Positions 2,760 through 61,968 of a stretch of 64,000 nt of DNA are shown piece by piece. This stretch comes from an uncultured Gemmatimonadales bacterium (lineage in GTDB: Bacteria > Gemmatimonadota > Gemmatimonadetes > Gemmatimonadales > GWC2-71-9). The stretch is from assembly GCA_963730185.1 (NCBI GenBank), contig CAVSQW010000012.1:192001-256000 (forward strand). Direction: 5' to 3'. Position 1 is the first letter of the stretch. Every line of letters begins with the position of its first letter. The notes under the pieces were generated by a model. That model worked only from the letters and a program-made list of their open reading frames with translations, did no database searches and was not told the DNA's origin. Made by a program: the position numbers and the translations under genes.

Positions 2760-3076
2760 CAGACCGGGGTCACGACCGGCGAATCGTCGGGCAGCGCCCG
2801 GCCGGCGTCGGACGATGCCGGGGTCGCCGGGCGCGCCAGCCGCCGCTCCGCGAAGTCGAGCCGCTCCTCCACCTCGATCAGCTCGGCCCGAAGCCGCTCG
2901 ACCTCCCCGGTGAGCTCGGCGGCCCGCCCCCGGTTGATGTGCCCCTTGAGCCAGCTGATCGCGGCCCGGCCGAGGGGTGTGACCGACAGGAGCGTGATGC
3001 CGAGCGCGCCGACGATCCAGGGAATGAGCAGGTTGATCGAGTGGTTGATCCACCAGTTGATCTGATCCGGATTCAT
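2759..3076 (-). CDS. Hypothetical membrane protein with coiled coil
   Basis: TM segment followed by EVEERLDFAERRL; GGAGGAAGG upstream. Confidence 0.75.
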   Translation of the reverse strand: MNPDQINWWINHSINLLIPWIVGALGITLLSVTPLGRAAISWLKGHINRGRAAELTGEVERLRAELIEVEERLDFAERRLARPATPASSDAGRALPDDSPVVTPV

Positions 3077-3316
3077 TGCCTTCCTCCTCGTCCGGGGTCC
3101 CGGCGTCTGCTCCTCAGCGAATGTAGAAGGGTTCCGCCACGCGAGGCCCTCGCCGAAAACCGAGGTCGGGCCACGAGGTTGAAGATGGGAAGTGCGGTCG
3201 CTCGGCGCCACGCACCCAGCCGACCGGCAACCGAGAGATCCACTGGTTGGCGGCGGCTTGTATTTCGGGGTTTGTTCGGTATCTTGAGATCCCGCCCCAC
3301 CGGAGCACGATCCACG

Positions 3317-4594
3317 ATGAAGCGCCCCGCCGACCTCGAAGCCAAGGTCTCGCTCCTGATGTCGCTTGCCCAGGACGATCGCGAGGGGCTTCCGGGCGCC
3401 CGGCCGTCGCCCCCCCGGCTCCGGAACGCGAACCGGGCCGGCGTCCTCGGTCCGGCCACCATCCGCCAGGTTCGGCCGGCCGGCGGTCCGGCGACCTCAC
3501 TGCTCCGGATCTTGATGACGAACGCGTGCAGCTTCAACTGTCACTACTGCCCGATGCGGCGCGACCGGAATCTGCCTCGGACTCTCCTCAAGCCGGAGGA
3601 GCTGGTCCGGGTCTTCATCGGCGCGCTGGAGCGCGGGTGGTGCTCGGGACTCTTCATCACGACCGGGATTCCGGGCCGTCCGACCAAGGTGATGGACGAC
3701 CTGATCGCGGTCCTGGAGCTGCTCCGCGAGCGGCACCGTTTCCGGGGTTACGTCCACACCAAGATCGTGCCGGGCGGCGATGCCGCGCAGGTGGAGCGTC
3801 TGACGTCGCTGGCCTCCCGGGTGTCGGTCAACGTCGAGGCACCCTGCGGCCGGCACCTGGCCCGGATCGCCCCCGAGAAGCGCCTGGACACCACGCTCGA
3901 GACCTTCGAGCAGGCGCGGGCGCTGGTCAACCACACCCGCCGGGCGGAGCGGGCCGGCCGGCCCCGCGATCTGCTGCATCCCGGCGGCGTGGCGGGCATG
4001 ACGATGCAGTTCGTGGTGGGCGCGACGCCCGACAGCGACCGGGCCATCATGGACAAGGTCACCGAGCTCAACCGGGCGGGCGGGGTCCACCACACCCACT
4101 TCAGCGCCTTTCGGCCGATCCGCGACACACCGATGGAGCAGGTCCCGGCCACGCCGGCTCTCCGGGAGCATCGCCTCTATCAGGTGGACCACCTGGTTCG
4201 CGACTACGGCTTCGCTCCGACCGAGATCCCATACGATGCTCGCGGGAACGTGCCGCTGGCCCGCGACCCCAAGATCACCTGGGCCCTGGCCGAGCCCGAT
4301 CGGTTCCCGGTCGAGCTCAGGACGGCGGGCTACGACGAACTGGTTCGGGTGCCCGGTATCGGGCCGGGAACGGCGCGACGGATCGTGGCCGAGCGCCGAA
4401 CGACCACCATTCGGGGGCTGAACGACCTGAAACGGCTCGGGGCCAAGACCAATCGGGCCGCCGGATTCCTCACCATCGGTGGCCGGCGGCTCCAGCACGA
4501 GCGCTGGGCCGAGCAGCTCGGATTTTGGAGCCCGGAGGAGGAGGCGGGAGCCCCGCAGCTCCTCTACGAGGTGAGTCCCGGCACGTTCCGCTGA
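3317..4594 (+). CDS. Putative DNA modification/repair radical SAM protein with C-terminal helix-hairpin-helix
   Basis: LLRILMTNACSFNCHYC (CxxxCxxC); REHRLYQ; RVPGIG HhH. Confidence 0.88.
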   Translation: MKRPADLEAKVSLLMSLAQDDREGLPGARPSPPRLRNANRAGVLGPATIRQVRPAGGPATSLLRILMTNACSFNCHYCPMRRDRNLPRTLLKPEELVRVFIGALERGWCSGLFITTGIPGRPTKVMDDLIAVLELLRERHRFRGYVHTKIVPGGDAAQVERLTSLASRVSVNVEAPCGRHLARIAPEKRLDTTLETFEQARALVNHTRRAERAGRPRDLLHPGGVAGMTMQFVVGATPDSDRAIMDKVTELNRAGGVHHTHFSAFRPIRDTPMEQVPATPALREHRLYQVDHLVRDYGFAPTEIPYDARGNVPLARDPKITWALAEPDRFPVELRTAGYDELVRVPGIGPGTARRIVAERRTTTIRGLNDLKRLGAKTNRAAGFLTIGGRRLQHERWAEQLGFWSPEEEAGAPQLLYEVSPGTFR

Positions 4595-8977: not shown

Positions 8978-9613
8978 CTACCGCTCGCGCCGCCGCCCGG
9001 CCGGGCGGGGTCGGGCGCCGCGCCCGGCGCGCGGGACCAGGGTCGTCATCGCCGCGAGCACCTCGTCGAACGAGGGCATGGCGCCGACCACCGGCGTCAT
9101 GGTGGCCACCTCGAATCCGGGGCCGGGATCGAGGACGTGACGGCCGTCCGCCCTGAGCCGGGCGACGTTCCGGCACACGGCCGGCTGGGCCCACATGGCA
9201 GGATTCATCGCGGGCACGAAGAGCACCGGGCACGAGGCCGCCAGGATGGCGGCCGTCGGTCCGTCGTCGGCCAGGCCGTGCGCCGCGCGAGCCAGCAAGT
9301 TGGCGGTGGCGGGAAGCGCCACCACCAGATCGGCCCCGGCGACCGCTTCGACATGAGGCACCAGGAGATCGGCGGGCGCGTCGAAGAGGTCGAGCACCGG
9401 CTCGAGCCCGGTGACGACCCGGACGGCGTACGGCGTGACGAACCGGCGGGCGGCGGCCGAGAGGAAGACCCGCACGGTCGGCGCGAAGGTACGCCGCACC
9501 AGGAAGAGAAAAGCCGGCAACATGACGGCCGCGACGGCGCCCGACGCCGCCACGACCACCGACTCGCAGACCTTCGCCTCGGGAAGCGGATCGGGCGGGG
9601 ACTTTCTGGGCAT
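8978..9613 (-). CDS. Stand-alone HFCD flavoprotein, LanD/EpiD-like peptidyl-cysteine decarboxylase
   Basis: ASGAVAA, PHV (catalytic His position), PATANLLA, PAMNPAMW; no CoaB domain; no LACG Cys motif of CoaC. Confidence 0.8.
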   Translation of the reverse strand: MPRKSPPDPLPEAKVCESVVVAASGAVAAVMLPAFLFLVRRTFAPTVRVFLSAAARRFVTPYAVRVVTGLEPVLDLFDAPADLLVPHVEAVAGADLVVALPATANLLARAAHGLADDGPTAAILAASCPVLFVPAMNPAMWAQPAVCRNVARLRADGRHVLDPGPGFEVATMTPVVGAMPSFDEVLAAMTTLVPRAGRGARPRPAGRRRER

Positions 9614-9665: not shown

Positions 9666-11088
9666 ATGCTGGGAATCCCGTACCCGACCCGCCGGCTCAG
9701 GGCCCGTCACCACCACCAGCTGCTCGTCCGGTTCCGCGACGAGGCGATCGAGAGCGCCGGCAGTCGCATTCTCGCGCGCGAGCATCCCGGCCTGGCGCTC
9801 TTGCACCAGCACGATCGGGCGGGAAGGCTCCGGCGCTTCGTCTCACTGCATCCCCGGGTGCAGTGCGATCTCTCGGCCGATCGCGGCGCCCGGGTGACCG
9901 GCGGGTTCCAAGCCGCGGCGCGCTTCCACCGCCGCGAGGACCTGCTGGGTCACCACGCCCGGGCCTTCCTGGTGGAAGTCGAGTCGAGGACCGCAGACGC
10001 CGTGAGCGACCTCCGGCGAGCCCTGGCGGCCGACCCGAACGTGGAGCACGTGGAGATCGCTCCGATGCGATATCTCTGGGCGGCGCCACCGACGCGCGCG
10101 CCGGACGGGCTTCCCCCGACCCGCCATTGGAACCTGGACCGGATCCACTTCTGGGCCGCCGTCAACCGGAAGGGCTTCAAGAACGCGGACGGGATTCCGG
10201 TGGCGGTGCTCGACTCGGGCGTCCAGACCGACCACCCGGCGCTTCGTCATTCCGTCCACCGCTACATCGTCTCGCGGCACGCCGCGCCGGGACTGGGGCG
10301 CCACGACCTGATCGGCCACGGGACCCACGTGTCGGGCATCATCGCGGCCCGCCGGCGCCGCGCCATGGACCCCCGGGGAATCTGCCAGTGCGACCTCCGG
10401 GTCTGGAAGATCTTCGACGACGAGCCGAGCTACGACGACCAGATCAAGGTCTTCTATTACACCGTGGACATGGCGCTCTACCTCCAGGCGATGGTGGACT
10501 GCCTCCTTCAGCGGGTGAAGGTGATCAACCTGAGCCTCGGTGGACCGGCCAAGCCGGGGCGAAAGAGCCAGGAGCGGATCCTGTACGACGACCTCATCGC
10601 CCAGGGAGCCACCCTGGTGGCCGCGATGGGCAACGCGCGGGCGGCGGGGAGCCCGCCGTCGTATCCGGCCGCGCTGCCGGGGGTGGTGGCGGTCGGGGCC
10701 GTGGGCCTCGACGATCGGGTGGCGCCCTTCTCGAGCCGGGGGCGGCACATCGCGCTCGCGGCGCCGGGGGTCTCGATCTGGTCGACCTTGCCCAACTACG
10801 CCGGGCAAATCGGCTTCCACCCCCGGCGCGGGGTCCGGGGCACCCCCGGGTCGGGGCGGCGATGCCCAGGAACACCGGGGGAGACGCCTGGCCCGGCACG
10901 TCGATGGCGACCCGCACGTGACCGCCGCCGCCGCGCTGCTCCTGGCCAATCGAGGCACCATGAGCGGTTCCGACGTTCGCCAGGCCTTGATGAAGAGCGC
11001 GGGACCGCTGGCCGGCATGAAGCGGAGCCGCTGGACCCCCGATCACGGCGCCGGCATGCTCGATCTCGCCAAGCTGCTCGCCCCCTGA
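9666..11088 (+). CDS. S8 subtilisin-like peptidase, no signal peptide; two frameshifts near the 3' end
   Basis: VAVLDSG, GHGTHVSG, AAMGN in frame 9666; GTSMAT in a second frame (about 10893-10912); PHVTAAAALL...GAGMLD* in a third frame ending 11088. Confidence 0.85.
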
Positions 11089-11122: not shown

Positions 11123-12623
11123 TTGAGCGCTCCCCAGAAGCCAACCGTCCCGGTCCCGCAGGGCATGCTGTCCGATCTCGATCCGCTCGCGACCCCCGGC
11201 CCGAAGAAGACGGTGGTGGTGCTCGGGGCGGGGCTGGCCGGGCTCTCCGCCGCCTACCAGCTGGTGCGAGCCGGCCACCAGGTCACCGTCGTCGAGGCGC
11301 GCGACCGGGTGGGAGGGCGGATCGAGACCATCCGGACGCCGTTCACGGACGGCCAGTACGCGGAAGCGGGCGCCCTGTTCCTTCCGGCGCACCATCCGCT
11401 CACGATGGGATATGCCCAGCAGTTCAAGCTGCCGCTGGTCACGATCTCAACCTCCAAGGATCCCTGCCTCTGGTACGTGAACGGAGCCCGGATCGCGAAC
11501 CCGACCGACCCCGCCGCGGCCTGGCCGTTCCCGCTCTGGCCCGAGGAACAGAGGGGCGGAATCATCGGGATGATGACCCAGTACGTGCTCGGGCCGGTCG
11601 GGTCGGTCGGCGATCCGCGAGCCGCCGGATGGCCGCCGGCGACCGTGGCCCAGTACGACACCATGTCGCTCTGGGAGCTGCTCCGCTCCCGCGGGGCGTC
11701 ACCGGGCGCGATCAGCATCGTCCGCCGGGGTTACCTCGACCTCTCGGGCGACGGCATCGAAGCCTGCTCGGCGCTGGCCATCCTCCGCGACCTGGCCTCG
11801 CAGAGTGGCGGGATGCCGCCCCACCACCGGATCAAGCCGCCCCCCAACCCGGACGCCGACGATCCCTTGCTCGAGCACAGCATCACCGGCGGGAACGACG
11901 CCTTGCCTCGCGCCTTCGCGGCCCAGCCCGAGCTGGCGGGCAAGATCACCTTGAGCACACCGATCGCCCGGCTCGAAGCCGGCGCCGGCGGCCGGGTGGC
12001 CTGCGTGGCCGCCGACGGCCGGCGGTTCGAGGGCGATCAGGTGATCTGCACCATTCCCTTCTCGGTCCTTCGCACCCTGGACCTGGCCGTGCCCCTCTCC
12101 GACGCCAAGCGCCGGGCGATCGCCCGGCTGGAGCACACGTCCGTAACCCGCACCTTCCTGCAGTGTTCGCGTCGGCTCTGGCGGGAGCGGCAGATGCCGT
12201 GGGTGGCGAACACCGACCTCGACGTGATGTGGCTCAACGAACCGACCGCCGATCAGACCGGCACCCCCGGGATCCTCGAGTCGTTTGCGGCCGGGCCGGC
12301 CGCCCGCCGGTTCGCCGCGATGGCCGAGGCCGACCGGCACCAAGCGGTGGCGGAGGAGATGGATCAGCGTCTATCCCGGGGTCAAGGCGCTGATGCAATG
12401 CGGCGCCTCGAAGTGCTGGGACCAGGATCCCTGGGCCCGAGGCGATTACTGCTGGTTCCTGCCCGGCGACATGCGGGCCCTGGGACCGACCTTGCCGGCG
12501 GCGGAAGGAAACGTGCACTTCGCCGGGGACCACACGTCGGTGATGCCGGGATGGATTCAGGGCGCGTTCGAGAGCGGACACCGGGCGGCGCAGGAGGTCA
12601 ACGCCGCCCCGGCCGGGTCGTGA
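11123..12623 (+). CDS. Flavin monoamine oxidase / L-amino-acid oxidase family protein; one frameshift near 12368
   Basis: GAGLAGL...EARDRVGGR, AEAGA, GGND.LP; C-terminal WDQDPWARG and FAGDHTS..PGWIQGAFESG in a shifted frame; GGAG before TTG. Confidence 0.85.
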
Positions 12624-12630
12624 CGGCGGG

Positions 12631-14016
12631 TCAGTCGGCCGGAGTTCCCAGGAGGAACTCGCCCACCGGCGACTCCGCTTCGTAGCGGGTTCCGATGGCC
12701 TCGAGCAGGAGATCGGCCGGGCCCGAGCCGAGGGCGCAGGGCGCCAGGTTCATGGCGGTGGCGACGAGGTACATGGTCTGGAGCAGCACCCCGACGTCCT
12801 TGAGGACCACCGCGTAGGTGATGCCTTCGTATTTCCAGGACACCCGGCGAAAGCGAGCGGTCAGGACCAGCAGCACCTGGTGTTCGTGGGTCCCGTACTC
12901 GCCCACGTTCACGTGGGCGAGTAGCCGGCGGACCAGCGACGGGTGGCCCAGCGACTCGAGCCCGTGCCGGCCCGGGTCGTAGTGGTAGATCCCCCGAGCC
13001 AGCCCGCGGCACCGGTTCACGGCAAGGTAGATCTCCAGCTCGTAGCAGGCGCCGCCGCCGGGATAGGGCCGGCGGCTGGCCGGATAGAGGAGCTCCTTGC
13101 CGTCGGCGGGGATCGCGGTGTCGAGCCGGGCCGCGCGATGGAGGAACTCGCCTAGCATGTCGCGATCGATCGCGCGACGGGCGTGGCGGCGCCGACTCCG
13201 TCGCGCCTCGAGGACCTCGGTGAAGGAACGGTCGCGACGGCGAAGTCGGGCCAGGTCGGCTCGGGGCAGCGCGATGAAGGCGCCGGCCGCCGGTGGACGG
13301 GTGACTGGCGCGGGCGCCACGTCGCGGAAGGGATAGGTGGCGCCGGTCGGACCGTCGCGGCGGCCGGGCCGGCTCCGGGCGTGAAAGAGGAGATCCACCG
13401 GGCTCCACCCTACCAGATCGGGATCGAGCGCCTCGGCCGCCCTTCCTTCCGGGCACCGGCTCACCAGCTCGGCCGCGGCCAGCAGCTGGACCAGCTCGCC
13501 CGCGACGCGAACGCTCACGCCGGCCGCCGCCGCCAGCTCGGCGACGGTGCCGGGCCGGCTCAGATGCGACACCAGCGCCATGCCCGCCGGCGTGGGCAGC
13601 TCCACTCGAAGGCCGGAGCGCGGGGTCTCGAGCGACCAGCCATCGTCGCGCCGGGTCAGGACGGCGAAGCGGGAGAGCACCATCGGGCCGTCGAGCGGCG
13701 GAGCCGGCGCCACCGGCGCGCCGGCCATCGGGGTGAGCCGAGCCAGCACCCGACGCCGGTGCCGGAGACTGACCACGACGGCGCCGGCCCGGCGGAGCCG
13801 ATGCAGGAAGTGGATCCAGGCCGCCAGCGCGATCGGATCATCGGCGGCTCGCGCCGCCGCCAGCTCGGCCTCGGAGCCGCCGACCGCCAGAACGCGCAAC
13901 GCGCGCCGGACCCCCTGGTCCGGCGCGCGCCACGTGACCGTACGACGGCCCGATCGGACTGCGACGGCCCGCGGCGTCTCGATCGCTCGAGTGCCGGAGG
14001 CCAGTGTGAAGATCAG
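12631..14016 (-). CDS. SagB/ThcOx-family FMN-dependent azoline dehydrogenase with N-terminal extension (start codon uncertain)
   Basis: RRSRR, RRPYPGGGACYELE, GIYHYDP, SWKYE (KY motif), YLVATAMNLAPCALG. Confidence 0.9.
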   Translation of the reverse strand: MIFTLASGTRAIETPRAVAVRSGRRTVTWRAPDQGVRRALRVLAVGGSEAELAAARAADDPIALAAWIHFLHRLRRAGAVVVSLRHRRRVLARLTPMAGAPVAPAPPLDGPMVLSRFAVLTRRDDGWSLETPRSGLRVELPTPAGMALVSHLSRPGTVAELAAAAGVSVRVAGELVQLLAAAELVSRCPEGRAAEALDPDLVGWSPVDLLFHARSRPGRRDGPTGATYPFRDVAPAPVTRPPAAGAFIALPRADLARLRRRDRSFTEVLEARRSRRRHARRAIDRDMLGEFLHRAARLDTAIPADGKELLYPASRRPYPGGGACYELEIYLAVNRCRGLARGIYHYDPGRHGLESLGHPSLVRRLLAHVNVGEYGTHEHQVLLVLTARFRRVSWKYEGITYAVVLKDVGVLLQTMYLVATAMNLAPCALGSGPADLLLEAIGTRYEAESPVGEFLLGTPAD

Positions 14017-14378
14017 CAGACGAGTGTCGCGGTGAACTGCGCCGCGAGCTTTCGGTGGCTCCCCTTGTTCGACTCGCGAATCCCGCGGGGCTTGGGCGGC
14101 ACCACCAGATGGTAGTGGCCCTTCCCTTCCTCGTGAATGTGCACCTTGGCGCCGGGCGGCAAGGTGATGCCTTCCTCCTTGAGCACCTTCTTGGGGTTGG
14201 CCTTGACCCGCTTCCGGTATTCCGGATCGCCCCACATCCCGGCGATGAACCGAGCGTAGCGCTTCTGGTCGCGCGGGGAGCTCTTCTTCGCCTTCTTCGC
14301 GGTCGACCGCTTGGCCGAGGCCTTTCTGGCCGGCCGCTTCGCGGTCTTCTTTGCCGACTTTCTAGTCGTCTTTTTCAT
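14013..14378 (-). CDS. NHLP-leader RiPP precursor peptide, 121 aa, Lys/Arg-rich N-terminus, C-terminal Cys
   Basis: AGGAG 7 nt upstream; FIAGMWGDPEYRKRVKANPKKVLKEEGITLPPGAKVHIHEE...HLVVPPKP fits the nitrile-hydratase-like leader pattern; lies between YcaO and SagB genes. Confidence 0.85.
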   Translation of the reverse strand: MKKTTRKSAKKTAKRPARKASAKRSTAKKAKKSSPRDQKRYARFIAGMWGDPEYRKRVKANPKKVLKEEGITLPPGAKVHIHEEGKGHYHLVVPPKPRGIRESNKGSHRKLAAQFTATLVC

Positions 14379-14439
14379 CCGCCCGCTCCTTGCTGTATGA
14401 GTTGAAGAGCTACGGCATGCGACGGGACCGACGCCGGGG

Positions 14440-14470: not shown

Positions 14471-16681
14471 TCAGACGAAGAGCGGCACCGGGTTGAGTAA
14501 CCGCTCCGCGCTCCGTCGACGCCGGTGGCCGAGCCGCACCGGCACGTCGTAGAGACGGCCGGCGCCGAACCGGGCCCAGAAGTGACGGAGCCCCGGTACG
14601 ATCGCCTTGACGACGGGGACCCCGATGTCGGGACGGGTCTGATCGAGGACCAACAGATCGAGTCCGAGCCGCTCGAGCCGCGCCCGACAGGTGCTCAGGT
14701 CGGCCGCGACGCCGCCGCGTGCCAGCGCCAACGAAGTCGGCAACCCAACCCGCCGACCCGGGCGAGGCGAGAGGTGGGGATGCTCGCGAAGGACGGCGTG
14801 CCGGAGCCAACGACCGACCGCGCTCCGCGCCGCTCCAGGCTCGCGGTCCAACTCGAGCGCGGCGGCCAGGAGCTGCCCCATCTCGGCGAGGCTCCGGCGG
14901 AGGGCGACCGCCGGGTCGAGATGGGCGCCCATCCCGAACACGATCCGATCGGCGCCTCGCCCGTTCTCACCCGACAGCGCGACGTAGGTCGGAACGCCAA
15001 CGTCGCTGGTGGCGTCCAGCACCCAGATCCGGCGACCCAGGGTCCGGTACGCGGCGATGAGCCCTCGCACCCAGGGATCGTCGATCCGACCGAGATCCAC
15101 GCCCGGCAGCCGAAGTCGGTTGTACCACCAGATTGCCACGCCATCGCGCTCGATCAGCTCGAGCAGCCCCGCCAGCACCGCGTCTTCGAAAGTCTCGCCA
15201 GCGGCACAGCCGTTGGAGTCAGCCCAGCCGAAGCCGTCGGGCGCGGCCTCCGGATGGCCGAAATAGAGGAGCGCCGTCGGCAGGTAGCGAGGAGCCCGGC
15301 GGGTAAGCGACCAGACCGGGGTCCAGTCGAGGACCGACTCGGGGTCGAACGGCGTGGGCACCCGCGCGGTCGGACCCACGCGCGCGTTCCATCGGCGGCG
15401 GCCGCGATACTGCGCCGGGCTGAAGAGGAGACACTCGTTGGGATGGATGGCGCGATCGCCCAGGGCGCGGAACGTGCTTCGGATCCGGGGCTCGTCGCCT
15501 TGGAACACGCCCGAGTAGCGCTCGATCGCCTCGGCCATGGCGCTGGCCCGCGCTTCCGCGTCGGTGGTTCCCTTCCCGCCGCACTGCATTCGGAGATCGA
15601 CCGACCGCCAGCCGGTTCCGCCCCAGACCCGGGCGCTGTTGGCGCCGGCGGCGTAGGCGTGGACGCCCAACCCGGCCCCGACCTCGAGCGGCGCAAGGTC
15701 CCGGATCACGCCGGTCACGTCATCGACCAGCGCGTCGTGCCGGGCCACGAACACCTCCGGCGGGTCCCGGCGCCGGCCGGTGCCCCAGGACCGGAGCCGC
15801 GGCGCGATGCGAGCGGCGCTCAGGGGGGGCGCGACCCCGACCCGTTCGGCGTAGAGGCCGGCGTCGCCGCAGGCCGGGCATTGCGGCCGGCGGTCCACCC
15901 GATGGCGGCGCACGGACGCGTCGACGAGATCGAAGGTCAGCAGGTGGCGGCTCAGCAGCCCGCCGTCGCCCGTGGCCCACCGCTCGAGCTGCACCGCGAA
16001 GAGACCGATCGCCGCCCGAAGCGAGGCGCCGGTCCACCCGCGGGGCACCGGCCGGTCGCCGGCCTCGATTCGCTCGTCGTCGCGATTGCGGCGCACCCGA
16101 TGGGCCAGGCATTCCCAACAGGCCGTCTCTCCGGGACGAAAGACCGGTCCGAGCCAGGCCACCGTGCCCGTGGCCGCCAGCGGAACCCAGGAGCGCCCGG
16201 TCGTGAGCGCCCGGCGATTATGGGCCGCGAGGCGATCGTCCAGGTAGTCGTCCACGGCCACCAGGTCGAGCGCCGTGGCCCGCTGCCCGACCCGGATCCC
16301 GGCGGCCGCCAGCGCCTTCCGGTACCGGGCTCGTCCAGCCCGGGACCAGAACCGAAGGGTAACCCGGCACGGCACCGCCGCCGCCGACCCGGCGGCGTCG
16401 CGGAACACCTCGGCGGGGCCGACCATCCGTCCCTCCCGGAGATAGCCTCCCGCCTCGAGCCGGATCAGGGCGTAGTACACCTCGGCCGGATCGAAGCGGT
16501 CGGCCAGGCGGTCCACGATCCGGTCGACGGAGCGCCGACCGTCGAGCAGGGGGACCAGGGCGGCGTGGACCGCGCCGTGCCAGACCGCGCTCTCACGCTC
16601 CGACCTGAGCACGACCCGGTCGGGCGCGACCACCCGGGCCCGGAAGCGCGGGGCGAGCCGGGGATGCCGAACCGCCGTCAC
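14471..16681 (-). CDS. Fused TOMM leader-binding/C-protein + YcaO cyclodehydratase
   Basis: N-terminal RRE-like region, GPVFRPGETACWECL and PQCPACG; GKG, EAIERYS, SNGCAAG, ELIERD; C-terminal NPVPLFV (PxP). Confidence 0.93.
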   Translation of the reverse strand: MTAVRHPRLAPRFRARVVAPDRVVLRSERESAVWHGAVHAALVPLLDGRRSVDRIVDRLADRFDPAEVYYALIRLEAGGYLREGRMVGPAEVFRDAAGSAAAVPCRVTLRFWSRAGRARYRKALAAAGIRVGQRATALDLVAVDDYLDDRLAAHNRRALTTGRSWVPLAATGTVAWLGPVFRPGETACWECLAHRVRRNRDDERIEAGDRPVPRGWTGASLRAAIGLFAVQLERWATGDGGLLSRHLLTFDLVDASVRRHRVDRRPQCPACGDAGLYAERVGVAPPLSAARIAPRLRSWGTGRRRDPPEVFVARHDALVDDVTGVIRDLAPLEVGAGLGVHAYAAGANSARVWGGTGWRSVDLRMQCGGKGTTDAEARASAMAEAIERYSGVFQGDEPRIRSTFRALGDRAIHPNECLLFSPAQYRGRRRWNARVGPTARVPTPFDPESVLDWTPVWSLTRRAPRYLPTALLYFGHPEAAPDGFGWADSNGCAAGETFEDAVLAGLLELIERDGVAIWWYNRLRLPGVDLGRIDDPWVRGLIAAYRTLGRRIWVLDATSDVGVPTYVALSGENGRGADRIVFGMGAHLDPAVALRRSLAEMGQLLAAALELDREPGAARSAVGRWLRHAVLREHPHLSPRPGRRVGLPTSLALARGGVAADLSTCRARLERLGLDLLVLDQTRPDIGVPVVKAIVPGLRHFWARFGAGRLYDVPVRLGHRRRRSAERLLNPVPLFV

Positions 16682-19317
16682 CTCGCGACGCTGGTCTGGA
16701 ACGGCACGTCGAGCCGGGGGTCGTCGCGGATGGCGGCGAACGCCGGGTGGGCTCGGAACCAGGCTGGCGAGAGGGTGGAGGGGACGCTCGGCACCGCCCT
16801 GATCTGGTCGATCGCGCCGGCCCGATCGCCGAGGATCAGATCGATCTCGGCCTGCTGGACGACCCAGGCCACCCCCTGGACCGCATCGCGCGCGACCGGC
16901 TGGATCGTCATCGCCGCCTGGCCTTCCTCCATGGCCCGGGCTGAGTCGCCCTCCACGGCGTACACCAGGCCGAGGTCGGCGTGATAGGCCGGCGATCCCT
17001 GATAGACATCGTGACGGGGAAGCAGCACCGCGCGCGACGAATCGAAGTACGGCCGGGCCCGGTCGGGCTGCCCCTTCCAGCGATAGTACTCGCCCTTCGC
17101 CAGGTAGAAGGCCGCGGAGTCTACCGGCAGATGGGCCAGCGAGAGACGCTCGAAGGCACCACCCAACTGCCGGTCCAGGAAGGCCAGGTGCCAGCGAAGT
17201 CGCGGGATCAGGGCCACGAACAGCGCGGTGGTGTCCGAGTGCGCCACCGCCTCGTGCATCGCTTCGTGCGCCTTGGCGGTGTCGCCATCCCGGGCCATGG
17301 CCAGGTGCGACAGCGAGTGGTAGGCCGCCACGAAGCCCGGCGCCAGGCTCGCGGCCCGCCGGTACGACTCCTCCGCCGCGTCGTACTGGCGGAGCATCTG
17401 TTCGGTCGCGCCGACTTCCATGGCGTAAGCGGGCGAGAGCGGATCGAGCTGGGCCGCCCGCTTGGCATAGTCGAGCGACTGCTCCACCTGGCCGCGCCGG
17501 CGGACCACCGAGCCCATCAGCCAGAGCAGCTCGCTGTTGTTCGGCTGGGCCGACTTCGCCTCCGAGAACTCCACCAGGGCCCGGGCCAAGTCGCCCTGCA
17601 CCCAGTAGTAGAGATAGCCGCGGGCCAATCGCGCCTCGGCGGCGGTGGAATCGAGCGCCAAGGCATGATCCACCGCCTGGCTCGCCAGCCGCTGCCGCTC
17701 CGGCGAGCGGTCGAAGAGGTAGAAGTACATCGACTGGAGCTCGCCCAGCTTGGCGAACGCGTCGAGAAAGGTCGGATCCAGGGTCGTGGCCCGGGAGAAC
17801 TCCGCGATCGCCTGGCGCATCGGGCCTTCGGCGTAGCGCTGGTTGTCGAGCGCCTCGCCCCGGAGGAAGGCCTCGTAGGCGGACATGTCGTGGGTGAGCG
17901 CCGTCTGCCGGGTGGCCCGCTCGGAGCCGACCAGGCGGACGTTGAGCTGGGCGGCCACCTGCTCCGCGATCGAGGCCTGCACTTTGAAGATCTCGCCCGG
18001 GGCGAGCGCCACGGTGTAGCTCTGGGTCCAGAGATCGTGGCCGTCGCTCACCTGGACCAGGTGAGGCACGACCCGGACCTCGCCGGAGCCGTCCGGGTGC
18101 CGCTCGGTCTGGACCGATCCGGTCAGCACGTACCCGACCCCGAGCTCCTGTCCGACCTCCCGAAGGGAGCGATCGCGGCCGGCAAAGTGGGCGGCGCTGG
18201 CCCGGGAGATGGTGCCGAGCCCGTTGATGCTCCCGATCCGGCTGGTGATCTCGTCGGTGAGCCCGTCGGCGAAGTGCTGGTCGTCCGGCGTGCCCAGGTT
18301 CTCGAGCGGCAGGACCGCGATCATCGGCGTGGCCTCGACCGCGGGCCGGGCGGGGCGAAGCAGGATGTAGCCGGCTCCGCCCCCCAGCACCACCAGGGCC
18401 CCCGCGGCGAGGAGCCAGCGGCGTCCCAAGCTCCGGCCGGCCGCCGGCGGGGCCGCGACCTCGACCGTGACCGGCCCGGCGGACGCCCGGGCCAGGGCGT
18501 CGGCGAACTCGAGCGCCGACTCGTAGCGGTCGGCCGGCACCTTGGCCATCGCCTTCTCGAGCACGCCCTGCACGGCCGTCGGGATCGCGCTCCGCACGGT
18601 GCGGACGCTCGGCACCGGATCCAGCGAGTGCCGGGCCAGCACGGCCATCGCCGACGGACCGCGAAACGGCGGCTCGCCGACCAGCATCTCGTAGGTCACG
18701 CAGCCCAGGCTGTAGACGTCGCTTCGGGCGTCGATCTGATCGACGCTGCTGGCCTGCTCCGGACTCATGTACTCGGGCGTGCCGATCGCCACGCCGGTTT
18801 GCGTCATCCGGTCGCCGCCGGCGGCCGAGACCGCCTTGGCGATCCCGAAGTCGGTGACGACCGCGGTCCCGCCGCTCAGGAGGATGTTCTCCGGCTTGAT
18901 GTCGCGATGGATCAGACCCTGGCCGTGCGCGTGGCTCAGCGCCAAGGCCACCTCGCGAGTGATCCGGCTGGTCTCGTCGAGCGTCAACGGACCGGTCCGG
19001 GCCAGCCGTTCGCGCAGGGTCTCGCCTTCGACGAACGGCATCACGTAGTAGAGGAGCCCTTGGGACTCGCCCGACTCGAAGAGCGGGACGATGTGCGGGT
19101 GCTGGAGTCCGGCGGCGATGCTGATCTCCCGGGCGAACCGGTCGGGCCCAAGCGCCGCCGCCAGCTCGGGCCGGAGCACCTTGACCGCCACCCGTCGGCC
19201 GAGGCGGACGTCCTCGGCGAGGTAGACGGTCGCCATCCCGCCGCGGCCGAGCTCGCGCTCGACCCGGTAGCGCCCGCTCAGGGCCTCGGTGACGCGGGTC
19301 TGGGCGTCGGACGACAT
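16678..19317 (-). CDS. Hanks-type Ser/Thr protein kinase with TM segment, TolB-N-like and TPR regions
   Basis: LGRGGMATV, VAVK, HRDIKPEN, DFG, GTPEYMSPEQ; IAVLPLENL. Confidence 0.93.
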   Translation of the reverse strand: MSSDAQTRVTEALSGRYRVERELGRGGMATVYLAEDVRLGRRVAVKVLRPELAAALGPDRFAREISIAAGLQHPHIVPLFESGESQGLLYYVMPFVEGETLRERLARTGPLTLDETSRITREVALALSHAHGQGLIHRDIKPENILLSGGTAVVTDFGIAKAVSAAGGDRMTQTGVAIGTPEYMSPEQASSVDQIDARSDVYSLGCVTYEMLVGEPPFRGPSAMAVLARHSLDPVPSVRTVRSAIPTAVQGVLEKAMAKVPADRYESALEFADALARASAGPVTVEVAAPPAAGRSLGRRWLLAAGALVVLGGGAGYILLRPARPAVEATPMIAVLPLENLGTPDDQHFADGLTDEITSRIGSINGLGTISRASAAHFAGRDRSLREVGQELGVGYVLTGSVQTERHPDGSGEVRVVPHLVQVSDGHDLWTQSYTVALAPGEIFKVQASIAEQVAAQLNVRLVGSERATRQTALTHDMSAYEAFLRGEALDNQRYAEGPMRQAIAEFSRATTLDPTFLDAFAKLGELQSMYFYLFDRSPERQRLASQAVDHALALDSTAAEARLARGYLYYWVQGDLARALVEFSEAKSAQPNNSELLWLMGSVVRRRGQVEQSLDYAKRAAQLDPLSPAYAMEVGATEQMLRQYDAAEESYRRAASLAPGFVAAYHSLSHLAMARDGDTAKAHEAMHEAVAHSDTTALFVALIPRLRWHLAFLDRQLGGAFERLSLAHLPVDSAAFYLAKGEYYRWKGQPDRARPYFDSSRAVLLPRHDVYQGSPAYHADLGLVYAVEGDSARAMEEGQAAMTIQPVARDAVQGVAWVVQQAEIDLILGDRAGAIDQIRAVPSVPSTLSPAWFRAHPAFAAIRDDPRLDVPFQTSVAR

Positions 19318-24080: not shown

Positions 24081-24941
<861 letters not shown>

Positions 24942-24955
24942 GGGGTCGACTCCCG

Positions 24956-27757
24956 TCAGCCGAGGTTACGGCGGTGGAGGGCTTCCTGGACCACCCGGAG
25001 CGCGCCCGGCCGGACGCGAAAGCCCGGCCGGATCGGATCGGGCTCGATGATCTCCCGGGCCAGCAGATCGTCGAGCTCGGCCCGGCTCGCGGCTCGGGTC
25101 CACTGGAAAACCGTGGCGTGCTCGTCCGCGGTCAGGCTGCCGTGCTGCATGATGGCCACCAGAGTGAAGAGGTCGTCCTGGTCCATCCCGGCGATCACCG
25201 CGCCGATATCCGGCGCCGAGATGGCTTTCATCACCAGGGTGCCCGCCTCGACGGCCTCGATCTGTCCCAGCCAGATCTCGAAGGCGGTCCGGAACACGCC
25301 GGCGGATTCCCGGGCCAGCCGGGCGAAGAAGATCTCCTCGGGGTCGCCGGCCCGTTTGAGCCGGCGGCGCAGGGCCGCCCCGATCGAGCGGTCGGCCAGG
25401 GCCGGCGTGAACCGGAGCCGGAGTCCCGAGAGGTTGTGCCGGACCAGGATGGCCTGGCGGATCGCGGCCGCCGGTGTCATCGCGACGTCGATCCGGTGGG
25501 AGAAGAGGTCGCCCAGCCGGACCGCCGCGTCGAGCAGCCGGAACGCCTGCTGGTTGGTCACCAGGACCCAGAGCGTGCTCCCCGAGGTGGCGGCGATGAT
25601 CCGCTCCAGCTCCCGGACGCCGTCGAACCCGCCCACCGAACGGAGGAAGGCCCGTTCCATCTCCTCCAACACCAGCACCCGGCGGGTGCCGCTCATCTCC
25701 GCTTCGAGCCGGGCCGGATCGCCCACCCCGAGGAGCTCGGCCAGAAACGAGCGCACCCCCGCCGGCGATGCCAGCCGACCGTTGAGCTCACCCCGGACCA
25801 CGTCGAGCCCGGCGAGCGGCCGCTGGAGAGCGCAGTTGATCAGGCTGGTCTTGCCGCTCCCCCGCTCGCCCACCACCAGGATCGCGACCGGCCGGTCGGC
25901 CTCCCAGAGCGTTCGGGCCTCGGCCAGGGCCCGCATCTCCAGGTCGCGACCCACCAGAAAGCGGGGATCGTCCACCGCGTCGATCCGGAACAGCCGGCGA
26001 TAGATGGCCGGAAGCTCCTTCTCGCGCGGGTCGAGGATGAACTCGCGGGGCAGATAGGCCCGCCGGACGACGTCGGTCGCCTCGCCGGTCTCCTCGGGCA
26101 TCCACTCGATCGCGATCAGAAAGCGGCGATAGAGGGCGCCCAGCCCCTGGCGCCCGAGCCGGAGACCCTGCCTCGCCCCCGCGACCACCGCCGCCGTCCC
26201 GGCCACGACGGCCTGCCGGAGCCCCAGCCGGCCCAGGTGCGCGAACACGCCGAGCCGGCTCCGGCTCAGCAGGAGTCGGTTCTCGTGGAAGAGCCCGGCC
26301 AGCGTCCTGGCGATCCGCTCCCGCTCGCCGACCAGCTCCGCCGGCACGGTTTGCCGCTCCACCTCGAGGAGGGAGCGGGCATTCTCCAGCGCCTCGCGGG
26401 CCACCGACGCATCGGGGGCGTCCGACGCGCCCCGGTCCACGCCGGCGCCGAATTCCACCACCTGCCGGGCCCGCTCGATCTGCTGGAGCAGGCTCACGTC
26501 GACCGCCTCGGCGTCGGTGAACAACCGTTCCAGCCCGGCCCGCCCGGCCTCGTCGAAGGCCTCGCGGGCCATCCGCCGGGGCTCGAGCACCCGCCAGGGG
26601 ATCTTCCGGAACGGCGCTTCCTCGAGCCGACGGAGGACCCGGACCTCGGCCGGCATCGCGTCGACCAGCGAGTTGGCGCCCGACGCCAGGTCGTTCAGGC
26701 GGCTCAGCGCCGGCACCACTTCGGGCACCGGCCGGGGTGGGGTCTGGTCGTCACCGGCCAGCGAGGCGCGGAGCCACCCCAGGAAGGCATCCATCCCCTC
26801 GAGCAGACCCCGTCGCTCCGTCTCGAGCGCGCCCGCGGCCCGCTCGCCCTGCGCCAGCATCCCGCGCTCCAGCTGGTCGATCGCGGCCTCCAGCCGAAGC
26901 TCCGCCTCGACCGACCCGAGTTGGGCCGACCAGTGCTCGAAGTGACGGGTTCGATCCGACCGCTTGGCGCGGGGTGTCCGGCCCCAGGCCACCGCGACCG
27001 CGATCCGCCGCTCGACCACGCCGGCCACCATCCGGCACCAGTCGCCCAAGTCGCCCAGCGCCGCGGCGACCTCCCGATCGAGCTCCTCGAGAGTCGGGAT
27101 CGGCTCGCCCTCGATGGGACGAATCGTAGGCTCGCGCACCCCGGCGTCGAGCCCGTCGCGGACCCGATCCCAGTGTCGCCGCACCAGCTGCGCGGCCCGG
27201 GTGAACGCCATCGCGCACCGATCCTCGACGTCGAGCTGGCGGGGCTCCGAGCGGTGAAGTCCATCGGCGACCAACGCCTGGAGAGCCACCGAGCGGGGCG
27301 CCTTCCGCCAGCCGACCACTCGTCCGCTCAATCCCCGGAGTGCCGGCGGGGTCAGGACGCCTCCCACCTCGGGTCCGCGGGTCATGAGTCGGGTGGGAAG
27401 CCGCCGGATCAGGTCGTCCAGGCCCCGGTGATAGCCCTCCATGGCGAGAATCGTCCGGCGGAGCGGACCGAGGCGCTCCCAGCGGGCGACCGCCTCCTGG
27501 AACGCCCGGCGGCTGGCATCCTCCCGCTCCCGGATGAACCGGGCGAGGACCGAGCCCGTCCCGTCGGCGGTCGGGGCCGGCGCCGCCTGCTGCTCCTCCA
27601 GAATCAGCCGGAGGCGCCGCCAGCTCTCCGCCAGCTCGCGCTCGAGCAGGGCATGCAGGGAGCCGAGCCCGGCGGTGAACTGCGACCACTCGCGGGCGAA
27701 CTCCGACGGGGACGGCGGGGTCTCGGACGAATCGGCCATCGACTCCGGGAGGGTCAT
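24956..27757 (-). CDS. Large helical protein with C-terminal P-loop (AAA-type) ATPase
   Basis: FLVGRD.E, Walker [10 protein letters not shown], Walker B-like LVLEE; long helical N-terminus. Confidence 0.8.
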
Positions 27758-27768
27758 GGGGTCGGAAG

Positions 27769-29115
27769 CTATGGGCGGGAGCGAGCCGGCTCAACCTGGC
27801 GGCGCCCGGTCGAGGTTTCGTCCTTGACGACCCGGCCACCCTGCATCACGAACGGGATCGACGCCAACCGATCCAGGTCGGCCCAGTCCGATCCTGGAAC
27901 GGCGACCAGGTCCGCCAGCTTGCCCGGCGCGATCGACCCCACTCGCTCGGCCCAGCCCATCAGCCGGGCCGCCTCGATCGTGGCCGATCGAATGGCCTGC
28001 ATCGGCGTCATGCCGTACCGAACCATGTAAGGGAGCTGGCGGGCGTTCCAGCCGTGGGGATAGACACCGGCGTCGGTCCCGTACGCGATCTTGAGGCCCG
28101 CCTGGACCGCCTTCCGGAAGGCTTCCCGCTGGGTCTCGGTCGTCTCGTCGTTCTTACGGAGCGTCTCAGCCGGCCAGCCGTCGCGCCGGCCCTGCGCGGC
28201 GATGTAGTCGCCGTTGTAGATGTCGGCCACCAGCCAGGTGCCGTGGGCCTTCATCGAGGCGATGCCGGCGTCGTCGAGAAGCGAGCCGTGCTCGATGGCC
28301 CGAACCCCGGCCCGGACGGCGTTCGCGATGCCCTCGGCGCCGTGCGCGTGGGCGGTGACGTAGGTGCCCCGCGCCGCGGCGACCTCGACCGCCGCGCGGA
28401 TCTCCGCCTCGGTGAGCTCCGGCTCGCCCGGCTCGGTGCCGACGGTGAGCACCGCGCCGGTGGCGATGACCTTGATGAAGTCGGCCCCGCCGTCGAGGAT
28501 CGCCGCGACTCGCTCGCGGGTCTCGGCCGGATTCCGCACCACGCCGAACCGCATCTCCGCCGGCACCGCGACGGTGGTGTCGCCCGTGACTTCGCCGCCC
28601 CCGCCCGGCACGGTGACGTAGGCCCCGGCCACGCTCATTCGTGGTCCGGGCACGAGCCCTTTGTCGATCGCGTTCCGGAGCGCCACGTCGATGAAGGCCC
28701 GGTAGGTGCCGACGTCGCGCACCGTGGTGAACCCGGCCATCAGGGTGGCCCGGGCGTTGGCCGCGCCGAGCAGCGCGTCGTCCGCGGCGGAGGCGTGGAG
28801 GGGCGCCAGCGGGTCGGCCGCCTGAATGTCGCCGACCAGATGGGTGTGGACGTCGATCAGACCGGGATACACCGTCGCCCCGGAGAGATCGATGACCCGG
28901 GCCCCGGCCGGCGGCGCGGCCGAGCCGGGGAGCACGGCCGTGATCCGCTCGCCCCGGACCACGATCCACCGATCGGACAGTACCCGGCCCTGCTCCACAT
29001 CGACCAACCGGCCGGCCCGGAGCGCGACCACTTGAGCCCGGGCCGGCCGGGCCACCAGGAGGGCCGCGAGCGCCAGGCCGAGTCGGGGGACGAGGACGTG
29101 GAGCGGGGCGGGCAT
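27769..29115 (-). CDS. Secreted amidohydrolase (Xaa-Pro dipeptidase-like)
   Basis: PGLIDVHTH, GFTTVRDVG, AHAHG, IEHG, GTDAG. Confidence 0.9.
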   Translation of the reverse strand: MPAPLHVLVPRLGLALAALLVARPARAQVVALRAGRLVDVEQGRVLSDRWIVVRGERITAVLPGSAAPPAGARVIDLSGATVYPGLIDVHTHLVGDIQAADPLAPLHASAADDALLGAANARATLMAGFTTVRDVGTYRAFIDVALRNAIDKGLVPGPRMSVAGAYVTVPGGGGEVTGDTTVAVPAEMRFGVVRNPAETRERVAAILDGGADFIKVIATGAVLTVGTEPGEPELTEAEIRAAVEVAAARGTYVTAHAHGAEGIANAVRAGVRAIEHGSLLDDAGIASMKAHGTWLVADIYNGDYIAAQGRRDGWPAETLRKNDETTETQREAFRKAVQAGLKIAYGTDAGVYPHGWNARQLPYMVRYGMTPMQAIRSATIEAARLMGWAERVGSIAPGKLADLVAVPGSDWADLDRLASIPFVMQGGRVVKDETSTGRRQVEPARSRP

Positions 29116-52509: not shown

Positions 52510-53774
52510 TCATGTCGCGCGGGTGAGACGGCATCGTCCGCGCTGACGCCGATGACTACGCCTTGAGGGCGCGAAAGCAACCTGGAGGGCCGCTTCGCGG
52601 GCCATGTACTGCTTCGTGAGCGAGCCGCCGAGGAGCCGCGCGAGCGGCGTCAGCGGGCCGGAGAACCGGATCTCCAGCGTCAGGCGGGTGAACCCATAGG
52701 GCGAGTGAGTCGGTGGTCGGCCAGCACGCGGACCCCGGACGAGCGCGTCACCCATGAGAAGGCGCGAAGCGGCTCCAACCCGACCACCGTCCAGACGGCG
52801 GGCCGAAACTTGGGCTGGGTGATCCGGTAGCTCGCGCCCGGTGCCAGCTCCGCCGGGCCCAGCGGCTCGACCGAAATCATGGTCGGAAGCCAGTCCGGCC
52901 AATGCTGAACGTCCGCCAGCATTGGCCAGATCCGCTTCGGCGGCGCGGCGATCAGGTCGCTCGCGATGTACGGGGCGTTCCGGCTCGGGGCGTAGGCGGT
53001 CGGCACCAGCGCCGGCACCCGTTCCCGGTAGCGCTCGTAGACCTCGCCCAGCTGGCGCCGGAGCGCCCGCTCCTCGAAGTACACGCCGACCAGCACGTAG
53101 GCCGAGAGCCCCGCGTTGAAGAGCAGCCGTCCCACCGTCAGGTCGGGCGTGGCCCAGAGACCGACCAGGACGCCGGTCATGATCGGGTGGCGGTCGAACC
53201 GGTACATCCAGCGCTCGCGGAACGGCACCGGGACGGGCGGCCGGTCCCGAAAGCCGCGCCAGCTCTGCTGGAGCCCGAAGAGCTCGAAGTGGTCGATGGC
53301 GAACGTCGCCAGGAACAGGTAGGCCCACCCCAGGAGGGCGAGGCCGGTCAACACTCCCCGCGCCACCGGCGAGCGCACCGACCACACCGCCGCCGGGAGC
53401 GGCTGCCAGAGCAAGATCAGCGGCAGCAGCACCAGACCGGTCGCAAGCAGGAAGGTCGAGCGCTCCATCGACGGATGGATGATCCGGGTCCAGCGCTCCT
53501 TGAACCCCGCCCGCGCCATCACGCTGTGCTGAAGGCCGAACAGCGCCAGCAACCCGAGGTTGGAGAGCACCGCGCCGACCGGGTTGGCGACGCGGACCGG
53601 GCCGCCGGTGAAGGGCACGACACCGAGGCTGACCAGGATCAGCAGCAGCAAGGTCGCGAAGCCCACCGCGTACGACCCGATCCCATAGGCCAGGATCCCG
53701 ATCCGGGGGAAGAGTCGGGTACTTGATAATACCGACCGGTCGGTATGGGTGGCAGCAAGACCACGGGCAGTCAT
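52510..53774 (-). CDS. MddA-like membrane methyltransferase fused to an SRPBCC domain; frameshift near 52705
   Basis: FGLQHSVMAR..FK..WT, ERST, IDHFELFGL, RHP, EER; then APPKRIW...DVQHWPDW; tail TRLTLEIRFSGPL in a shifted frame. Confidence 0.78.
53729..53746. promoter_or_regulatory. Palindromic TetR-type operator inside the 5' coding region
   Basis: Perfect 18-bp palindrome ataccgaccggtcggtat. Confidence 0.7.
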
Positions 53775-53789
53775 GCGAATTCTCTCCTT

Positions 53790-56093: not shown

Positions 56094-56182
56094 CACATTA
56101 GCCCGGGAGGCCTGTAGCAGTAGCGGTTTAGACTGCACGGGAGGCTCGACAACGATGCGTCCGACCGCATCCGGGCAGAACG

Positions 56183-56236
56183 GTCTTCTTCGTCGAGACC
56201 CCGGTCTTCACGGCGGAGATCCGTGCCCTGCTGCCG
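56183..56236 (+). pseudogene. N-terminal remnant of a RelE/HigB-type toxin
   Basis: VFFVETPVFTAEIRALLP resembles the HigB2-like start F-I/V-E-T-P-x-F. Confidence 0.5.
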
Positions 56237-56891
56237 GGGTGGCGCGATCGCGGCCGCGTTCTACAACGCCTATCCATCGCGGGTCCTCGGCCTGGTGCTG
56301 GAGGATGGCGGATCCTTGAGCTTCCAGAAGGTCAATGACCAAAAGCGCGACGACCAGCTCAGCGCCTGGCTGCCTCCCGACGACTCGGTTCGAAAGCCGG
56401 CTTCATTCGGGTCGGCTCGCGATGCGTTCGTCGCCGCAATCGACGGGAGTCCGGCGCTCGAACGGGACGACGCCGTGTGGGCACTGCAGACCTACGCTAC
56501 GCTCAGTCAAGGCGACGACGGCCGGTGGATGATCAATCGGGGTCTTTCGGAGTGGCTGGAACAGGACAGCCGCCCCCATCTGCTCAATCTCTTCAGGCGG
56601 CCCTCGCTCACGCCGCTCTTTCAGTGGTCGGTCGCGGCGGTCATCCCGGCGGTCATCTTCCGGAATCTCGACGTGCTCATGCTGATCATCGATCCGGTCC
56701 GGGACGGCGACGAGTTCCCGGCGACCGATCAGAATCAGCAACTCCAACGCGCCCATCCCTCGCTGGTGACGCATCGGACCTACCAGAACACCAGTCACGC
56801 GGCAAAGCTGGAGCGCCCCGAATGGTTTCTGCGGGACGTAGGGGAGTTCATCGACCGGATCAAGGGAGGGGGCCACCTGCGGCCCAAGTAG
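56223..56891 (+). pseudogene. 5'-truncated alpha/beta hydrolase
   Basis: Begins at GGAIAA..Y..YP.RV.GLVLEDG (just after the nucleophile elbow); ends TSH...ERPEWF. Confidence 0.65.
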
Positions 56892-58421: not shown

Positions 58422-58430
58422 GAGATGCCA

Positions 58431-61353: not shown

Positions 61354-61443
61354 GGGCCGGTCTCAATTGACGCGATCCGACTGCCTACGGTGATTCGTTA
61401 GTGTGAGCGTTGTCCGACCTATTCCCCGCCTTGGAGGTCCTCA

Positions 61444-61947: not shown

Positions 61948-61968
61948 CAATCAGAGGGGCCGTCGCGT

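Follow-up and report, generated by a model that had tools for sequence, protein, structure and literature searches.

An NHLP-like precursor with a predicted seven-residue core in an azole-peptide gene cluster of an uncultured Gemmatimonadales bacterium

An NHLP-like leader with a short predicted core

We examined an open reading frame (ORF) at 14013–14378 (minus strand) in a 64,000-nucleotide stretch of contig CAVSQW010000012.1 (hereafter the window) from an uncultured Gemmatimonadales bacterium; it encodes a 121-aa protein that an earlier note, made from the sequence alone, had described as an atypical NHLP precursor with a histone-like basic tail. On balance we favour the reading that this protein is an NHLP-like leader carrying the C-terminal core FTATLVC in an azole-peptide pathway, in which a neighbouring S8 subtilase would cut after Gln114 and a flavin-dependent cysteine decarboxylase of the HFCD family would act on the terminal Cys. 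The minus-strand gene order is Ser/Thr kinase, YcaO, precursor and SagB/ThcOx oxidase; the S8 and amine oxidase genes converge on these, and the HFCD gene is divergent from the S8 gene.

The leader fold corresponds to residues 35–97 (14088–14276, minus strand) and has three helices, a degenerate motif 1 and P94-x-x-P97; motif 1 and PxxP without CxxCSC are hallmarks of NHLP leaders, and no CxxCSC is present. PF02979 matches residues 42–104 with 33.6 bits, above its cut-off of 27.2. TIGR03793, the leader model by which the earlier note proposed to judge the protein, matches as well, but its 42.6 bits are below the cut-off of 50.9; the aligned part (57 residues on 57 positions, model positions 7–63 of 77) comprises all but the acidic Gly-Gly segment, and two syntenic relatives pass the cut-off (L161 with 55.1 bits and L158 with 52.1). 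W49, D51, P62, L66, G70, P94 and P97 are conserved in a 58-row alignment. An AlphaFold (AF2) model from 58 sequences places three helices at residues 35–68, with the strands not resolved, and its top Foldseek match is the proteusin precursor 8TB1, with probability 1.0 but an E-value of 0.013. Together, the two profile matches and the fold match bear out the earlier assignment to the NHLP clan: the precursor works like an NHLP leader, yet falls short of the stricter criteria of the family.

Acidic motif 2 ending in Gly-Gly is absent from the precursor. A basic linker does stand in its place, as the earlier note had it, although the consensus quoted there for the replaced segment, ELSDEELEAVAGG, is that of Nif11, the NHLP consensus being ELSDEQLDAVAGG (Table 3 of Haft, PMC2887384). 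Its statement that the window holds no C39 peptidase also stands, as profile searches for a peptidase-ABC transporter gave no C39 match in the window; the single PF03412 match in the genome, which is 82% complete, is a C39_2/TPR protein without an ABC domain. Loss of the Gly-Gly is not new, being in print for NHLP-Burk (TIGR03795; Haft, Basu and Mitchell 2010, PMC2887384), with which the precursor shares a nitrile hydratase-like leader, motif 1, PxxP and the lack of motif 2 and Gly-Gly, together with a terminal Cys, a fused cyclodehydratase and a neighbouring large Ser/Thr kinase. It is nevertheless not an NHLP-Burk member: TIGR03795 gives no match at E 0.1, neither the 15-residue insert before PxxP nor the tandem pair is seen, and one precursor copy was found in the genome. 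The S8, amine oxidase and HFCD genes, all three present in the window, are not mentioned for NHLP-Burk in the available text of that paper. Classical NHLP/proteusin precursors (TIGR03793; nuclear magnetic resonance structure of MprE, 8TB1; PMC12537861) likewise have a folded N-terminal leader, a flexible C-terminal region and a YcaO partner, from which the window system differs in its score below the model cut-off, its basic rather than acidic linker, its lack of a Gly-Gly and of a peptidase-ABC exporter, and its predicted 7-residue core.

Related clusters and the site of cleavage

The search for related clusters covered 401 genomes from the phylum, 401 from the family, of which 21 have this YcaO type, and 22 from the genus, together with one scan across all species genomes. 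A locus present in duplicate was counted a single time, loci without a YcaO (L038, L260, L262, L264, L265) or without a precursor found on the contig (L132, L164, L165) were left out, and L045 was scored on the residues past an in-frame TAG. Counting that of the window, 27 distinct clusters in which a precursor was identified were obtained, with conserved gene order; those of named origin belong to Gemmatimonadota. The acidic Gly-Gly motif is absent from all precursors of the 27 clusters. Among single-domain database matches, 30 of 46 likewise gave no match to a strict motif-2 pattern, a figure to which we attach no weight because degenerate sites are present in several of them. Five of them (L158–L161 and L163) have the full layout of kinase, YcaO, precursor and oxidase with amine oxidase and S8 genes, and contain neither an HFCD gene nor a terminal Cys in the precursor.

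The precursors of these five syntenic clusters, all with an S8 gene, have the C-terminal sequence Q-[FI]-T-I-P-x; P0005, the closest among full-length homologs in the database, ends in MFTSPVIC; and Thr116 is invariant in a 10-row alignment. Because of these three features we predict FTATLVC (residues 115–121; 14013–14036 including the stop codon, minus strand) as the core, with a likely cut after Gln114. This residue, the predicted S8 P1 residue, ends the basic linker (residues 98–114; 14037–14087, minus strand); the linker is also basic in three of the five syntenic S8 clusters and neutral in two. The earlier suggestions that cleavage follows a rule other than Gly-Gly/C39, that the neighbouring S8 protein is the likely protease and that the cut lies near AAQ/FTATLVC are supported, the last of them by the ending shared among the five S8-bearing clusters and by the invariant Thr116. 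There is precedent in the S8 protease CcaF, which removes an NHLP leader by cutting within four Ala (PMC10676384), although according to a 2015 survey NHLP families have no PatA/G-like proteases (PMC4603692). The dehydrazole (carnazolamide) cca cluster to which CcaF belongs resembles the window in its NHLP precursor, YcaO, azoline oxidase and S8 cleavage at a non-Gly-Gly site (PMC10676384); the window differs in having no LanM-type dehydratase, epimerase or methyltransferase, in its short core, and in having an HFCD and an amine oxidase.

The S8 gene (9666–11088, plus strand; PF00082) encodes D183, H218 and N323, with the Ser motif in a shifted frame, and the amine oxidase gene (11123–12623, plus strand), whose product is a flavin enzyme resembling L-amino-acid oxidases (its best PDB matches), matches PF01593 in two frames. 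In this assembly the S8 frame is broken near 10842 and 10910 and the amine oxidase frame near 12368. The sites were compared with low-depth contigs from 2–3 independent runs per site, in three studies: an extra base is present at the S8 sites in contigs of 2 and 3 runs, and contigs of 2 runs differ by one base at the amine oxidase site. Because independent runs carry compensating bases and the S8 homologs (n=4, aligned) are in a single frame, the frameshifts are most likely assembly errors. That the cluster is decaying, with S8 and amine oxidase as true pseudogenes and a drifted precursor, would fit the three frameshifts but is very improbable, as the contigs supply the exact compensating base at all three sites and the core is unchanged in precursor variants.

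Other subtypes of the family have other proteases, kumamolisin-type in 6 clusters and C25 in 2, so that in this family the Gly-Gly/C39 processing of NHLP leaders gives way to proteases of S8, kumamolisin or C25 type. The C25 (clan CD) peptidase genes (L066, 8373–9893; L094, 8320–9894) are divergent from YcaO, and the accompanying precursors end in D-F-A-[VI]-C, which suggests cleavage after Asp. A kumamolisin-type protease lies beside the cluster in L070, L045, L036, L148, L154 and L155, where the precursors mostly have an H-[PA]-[DN]-[IL]-C-like motif preceding a Cys-rich core. In the L045 precursor (12223–12477) the in-frame TAG stands just before a normal-looking core ending in CCTF and could be an error, a mutation or a site of read-through. 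Precursors with repeated Cys-containing core cassettes, similar to those of cyanobactins, occur in L008 (1073–1456), L036 (9859–10182) and L155. Among S8-type clusters, a radical SAM C-methyltransferase matching TIGR03975 is found in L160 (5567–7627), L161 (11984–14074) and L163, and more weakly in L158 and L159; TIGR03975 has no match in window positions 4000–26000. In L006, L009–L013, L016–L018, L020–L022, L024, L025 and L027 an NHLP-like domain is fused N-terminally to a conserved protein of about 430 residues, and a stand-alone NHLP gene lies 4–11 kb off on the same contig; many genomes in two of the class's families have this arrangement. The family as a whole offers concrete biosynthetic targets in a widespread and mostly uncultured phylum.

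The predicted cysteine decarboxylase and the terminal Cys

The HFCD gene (8978–9613, minus strand; PF02441) encodes a stand-alone, LanD/SpaF-like flavoprotein. Its best PDB match is 7CFU (E 4e-32), which is SpaF, a thioamitide cysteine decarboxylase (10.1101/2020.08.21.260323). It keeps the conserved His and the PATAN and PxMNxxMW flavin motifs, and an HFCD tree places it among peptide-type rows and separates it from those of CoaC/CoaBC, with support of 99/95. A peptide-type HFCD together with a C-terminal Cys in the precursor, the combination that marks aminovinyl-cysteine (AviCys) pathways, is therefore present.

A terminal Cys is found in 7 of 7 clusters with an HFCD (8 of 8 precursors) and in 3 of the 20 clusters without an HFCD in the DNA examined (L148, L150 and L263); the clusters are related and the counts not independent, several of the contigs without HFCD are short, and a Fisher p of 5.5e-5 (7/0 against 2/17, calculated before L263 became the third exception) overstates the association. 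By the earlier note, homologs without the basic tail and the terminal Cys would speak against its reading, and this is half the case: the N-terminal tail is missing from the syntenic homologs and from P0005, and the terminal Cys, rather than being general, goes with the decarboxylase gene. In the tree, the five other cluster HFCDs that were included form a clade to which the window HFCD does not belong, so that HFCD and terminal Cys were probably brought together on at least two occasions. The remaining six HFCD clusters are minimal, with YcaO, precursor and HFCD and no SagB, and TIGR03605 matches in one of four genomes of these SagB-less clusters. At their smallest, the related clusters consist of three genes, with a core of 3–4 residues, and in L066, L094 and L157 the terminal Cys is the sole Cys, Ser or Thr after the leader fold, so that YcaO and HFCD have only this residue to act on.

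Five of the related HFCDs (L066, 12267–13232; L094, 12394–13269; L069, 4106–4999; L037, 8759–9673; L157, 1150–2022) share a conserved domain at the N-terminus, roughly 110 residues long, that belongs to no Pfam family; end-to-end alignment of this domain with the RiPP recognition element (RRE; RiPP, a peptide made by the ribosome and modified after translation) of the YcaO was without significance (probability 0.3%, E 0.2). A metagenome scan with the HFCD alignment gave 80 loci, none with a YcaO or NHLP, with C-terminal motifs and lengths like those of CoaBC/CoaC. A second PF02441 gene of the genome was considered as a CoaBC that would make the HFCD spare, and was rejected, as its sequence reads like UbiX.

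A proposed pathway and its alternatives

From family and synteny, the leader fold would almost certainly dock on the adjacent YcaO. YcaO enzymes use ATP to activate the preceding amide carbonyl. YcaO and the SagB-type oxidase would probably convert Thr116, and perhaps Thr118, to methyloxazoles. With comparable likelihood, judged from its family and co-occurrence, the HFCD would oxidise and decarboxylate Cys121 to an enethiol, as HFCDs are described to do with a terminal Cys (PMC11350588). Given that step, there is about an even chance that YcaO would close the enethiol on the preceding carbonyl, by attack of the enethiol sulfur and loss of water, to give an aromatic des-carboxy thiazole (-64.016 Da at the terminus) with no further oxidation needed. 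The S8 protease would very probably remove residues 1–114, and we incline to Gln114 as the exact site; more doubtfully, the amine oxidase might then deaminate the freed N-terminal Phe to a keto-acyl cap. The predicted product would be Phe-methyloxazole-Ala-(methyloxazole)-Leu-Val-thiazole, perhaps deaminated at Phe.

Tentatively, and at somewhat less than even odds, we extend this to a possible new family of short azole peptides in Gemmatimonadota, in which HFCD and then YcaO may act on the same terminal Cys to give an aromatic des-carboxy thiazole with no azoline oxidase, P450 or diiron enzyme; the window cluster would be a hybrid, with this step grafted onto the S8/amine-oxidase subtype and a product capped at both ends. 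Such a route would account for the lack of an oxidase or acceptor residue in the minimal clusters, because direct closure of the enethiol would give an aromatic thiazole. Decarboxylation beforehand would be useful because the dehydrazole enzyme CcaB, an NHLP YcaO, does not cyclise the C-terminal residue, leaving a C-terminal Cys, Ser or Thr unmodified (PMC10676384). According to one review, HFCD enethiols in RiPPs lead to aminovinyl-cysteine rings, and des-carboxy thiazoles are made by iron enzymes (PMC11350588). The AviCys HFCDs (SpaF/TvaF of thioamitides, EpiD, MrsD, CypD; 10.1101/2020.08.21.260323, PMC11350588) are similarly stand-alone, with the His and flavin motifs and a Cys-ending precursor; here, in contrast, the HFCD is paired with an azoline-forming YcaO, neither a dehydratase nor a lyase was found in the cluster, and three related clusters offer no AviCys acceptor residue. 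Bottromycin and lyngbyapeptin/barbamide have the des-carboxy thiazole from a C-terminal Cys that is predicted here, made by P450 or diiron enzymes after cyclisation (PMC11350588), whereas the flavin decarboxylase of the window would act before cyclisation. If true, the proposal would give the HFCD enethiol a new fate and provide a new route to bottromycin-type end groups, and the two-enzyme flavin/YcaO pathway would add new chemistry to RiPPs and offer a compact means of capping the C-termini of peptides. A literature search, mostly without subscription journals and supplements, found neither the cluster family nor the HFCD–YcaO thiazole route, and turned up no RiPP precedent for N-terminal Phe deamination.

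Besides the overstated co-occurrence, several observations weigh against the pathway as we propose it. P0005 has Met, not Gln, preceding the Phe, and the YcaO tree, which is unresolved at depth, does not place the window with the S8-type clusters. The window HFCD is encoded on the strand opposite the S8 gene and does not have the additional N-terminal domain seen in the other cluster HFCDs. Over 150 aa it shares 42% identity with a CoaBC from the genus, and searches of the present, incomplete assembly gave no CoaBC. Enethiols hydrolyse spontaneously (10.1101/2020.08.21.260323), the S8 and amine oxidase genes have frameshifts as assembled here, and SagB is present in the window cluster, so that a thiazole carboxylate is possible without the HFCD.

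This last point underlies what we regard as an unlikely but coherent alternative, in which precursor and S8 cut are the same, YcaO and SagB alone convert Cys121 to a thiazole-4-carboxylate, and the HFCD has no part in this, being for instance a substitute for CoaC, or acts only later on the thiazoline. In its favour, three clusters end in Cys without an HFCD, no CoaBC was found in the assembly, and P450 and diiron enzymes do make des-carboxy thiazoles from carboxy-thiazolines (PMC11350588). Against it stand the kinship to SpaF, the grouping apart from CoaC rows, the fused CoaBC found above cut-off in 17 of 20 other genomes of the genus, the need of the HFCD mechanism for a free thiol (PMC11350588), and the S8-type relatives, which are without HFCD and terminal Cys alike.

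Less probable still is that the HFCD enethiol adds to dehydrated Thr116 or Thr118 to form aminovinyl-methylcysteine (AviMeCys), these Thr being dehydrated by the kinase of the cluster or by a synthetase whose gene lies elsewhere. Ring formation of this kind is the known RiPP fate of HFCD enethiols (PMC11350588), thioamitide dehydratases may sit outside the cluster (10.1101/2020.08.21.260323), the core has two Thr and the cluster has a conserved kinase. Neither the window nor the scanned HFCD loci gave a lyase or dehydratase gene, though; HopA1 was found in none of five genomes (the positive control was detected), the one LanC-like protein of the genome is stand-alone, and in three HFCD clusters the core has no acceptor residue. 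Searches for LanB and LanM were blank, with positive controls silent too, and count for little. The masses of an AviMeCys ring and of a des-carboxy thiazole with unmodified Thr can coincide, and mass spectrometry alone may not separate them.

The basic N-terminal tail

The counts in the earlier note were exact on recount: 16 of the first 32 residues are K or R, and the protein has 35 K+R (23 K, 12 R) against 8 D+E (2 D, 6 E), with a pI of 11.0, a single Cys and, as also stated there, no Gly-Gly anywhere in its 121 residues. The K/A/R/S/T-rich tail (residues 1–34; 14277–14378, minus strand) is taken to be coding and translated, because a Shine-Dalgarno sequence, AAGGAG (14386–14391, minus strand), lies 7 nt upstream of the ATG; no in-frame ATG, GTG, TTG or CTG follows codon 1 before Met48, the next standard start, which is within the first conserved helix; and codon usage in tail and remainder is alike, with G+C at third positions of 0.86 and 0.88. 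All 121 residues are kept in two near-identical strain variants, in which three of five substitutions lie within the tail and the last 50 residues have none, leaving the core identical, and related-strain contigs carry the ORF without an indel wherever they cover it. A precursor–oxidase fusion masked by a frameshift was rejected, as the covering contigs have no indel and the homologs are separate genes. A word-based homolog search with the whole precursor matched nothing but itself, and an ESM Atlas search gave no usable match.

The tail is coil in the AlphaFold model, and a basic N-terminal tail is found in the window precursor only, among those of the 27 clusters; P0005 also has none. The earlier idea that the whole basic protein is a nucleic-acid-binding product is therefore not borne out, and features of a histone-like nucleoid protein are lacking, in that there is no DNA-binding fold and the tail is not kept among orthologs. 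We think it rather likely that the tail is removed with the leader and is a dispensable lineage-specific extension, and by itself it would be of little importance. Basic charge does recur in the NHLP clan, most clearly in the S8 subtype, and some role for the tail is possible. Three S8-type relatives are strongly basic overall (19–22 K+R against 3–4 D+E), and a 25-residue stretch with a net charge of +9 or higher occurs, at either end, in 5 of 149 database homologs. These observations, the pI, the tail kept in both strain variants and the full-length NHLP protein reported in Pseudomonas Os17 lysates (cited in PMC12636437) could be read as signs that the leader is kept, or is active once released, with a histone-H1-like tail that binds DNA, RNA, ribosomes or polyphosphate. 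We judge this improbable, about on a par with the AviMeCys ring: no syntenic homolog has the tail, a dedicated protease is conserved beside the gene and would remove the side on which the tail lies, and the only database match of the tail is a weak, low-complexity one to NF050153 (E 0.067). Ten ORFs of the genome, the precursor included, pass a filter for K/A/R-rich (lysine-rich) stretches, and any protein of pI 11 would shift DNA in an electrophoretic mobility shift assay. Four Gly-Gly-less NHLP proteins elsewhere have K/R-rich tails, three C-terminal and one N-terminal (P0066, P0107, P0126, P0108; contigs of 1.3–6.9 kb).

Other genes of the cluster and of the window

The YcaO gene (14471–16681, minus strand) encodes a 736-aa fused RRE/E1-YcaO cyclodehydratase with PF02624, PF21084, TIGR03604 and TIGR03882 above cut-off, its best PDB matches being LynD, TruD and MusD. 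The SagB/ThcOx-type azoline oxidase (12631–14016, minus strand) scores 148.5 with TIGR03605 (cut-off 78.4) and matches PF22767; an E1-YcaO with RRE beside an azoline oxidase is one mark of a linear azol(in)e (TOMM) cluster. Its start is probably a CTG overlapping the precursor stop codon (14013–14016), a rare start that would imply translational coupling; oxidase homologs align from residue 1–3, and the first downstream in-frame standard start is a TTG at 13899. The Ser/Thr kinase with TPR repeats (16678–19317, minus strand) overlaps the YcaO start and is likely regulatory. Among dozens of paralogs it is the genome's best match for the kinases of five of five related clusters tested. At least 12 Ser/Thr kinase paralogs lie within about 65 kb on contig C7 of the genome (about 578000–642000).

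Neither Rfam nor tRNA searches of the window gave a match, and no signal for a promoter or a terminator exceeded chance. Elsewhere in it are a radical SAM protein with helix-hairpin-helix motifs (2939–4594) and a mechanosensitive-channel gene paired with one for a 933-residue protein with a weak AAA match (24081–27790). Around an ArsP-type permease and an amidohydrolase (56000–62000), G+C is about 0.62 against 0.70, and this region is possibly acquired DNA. Finally, a near-identical segment (RIGILAYGIGSY...) is present in the frames at 52683–53789 and 62305–62697 (both minus strand), which suggests a duplicated gene.

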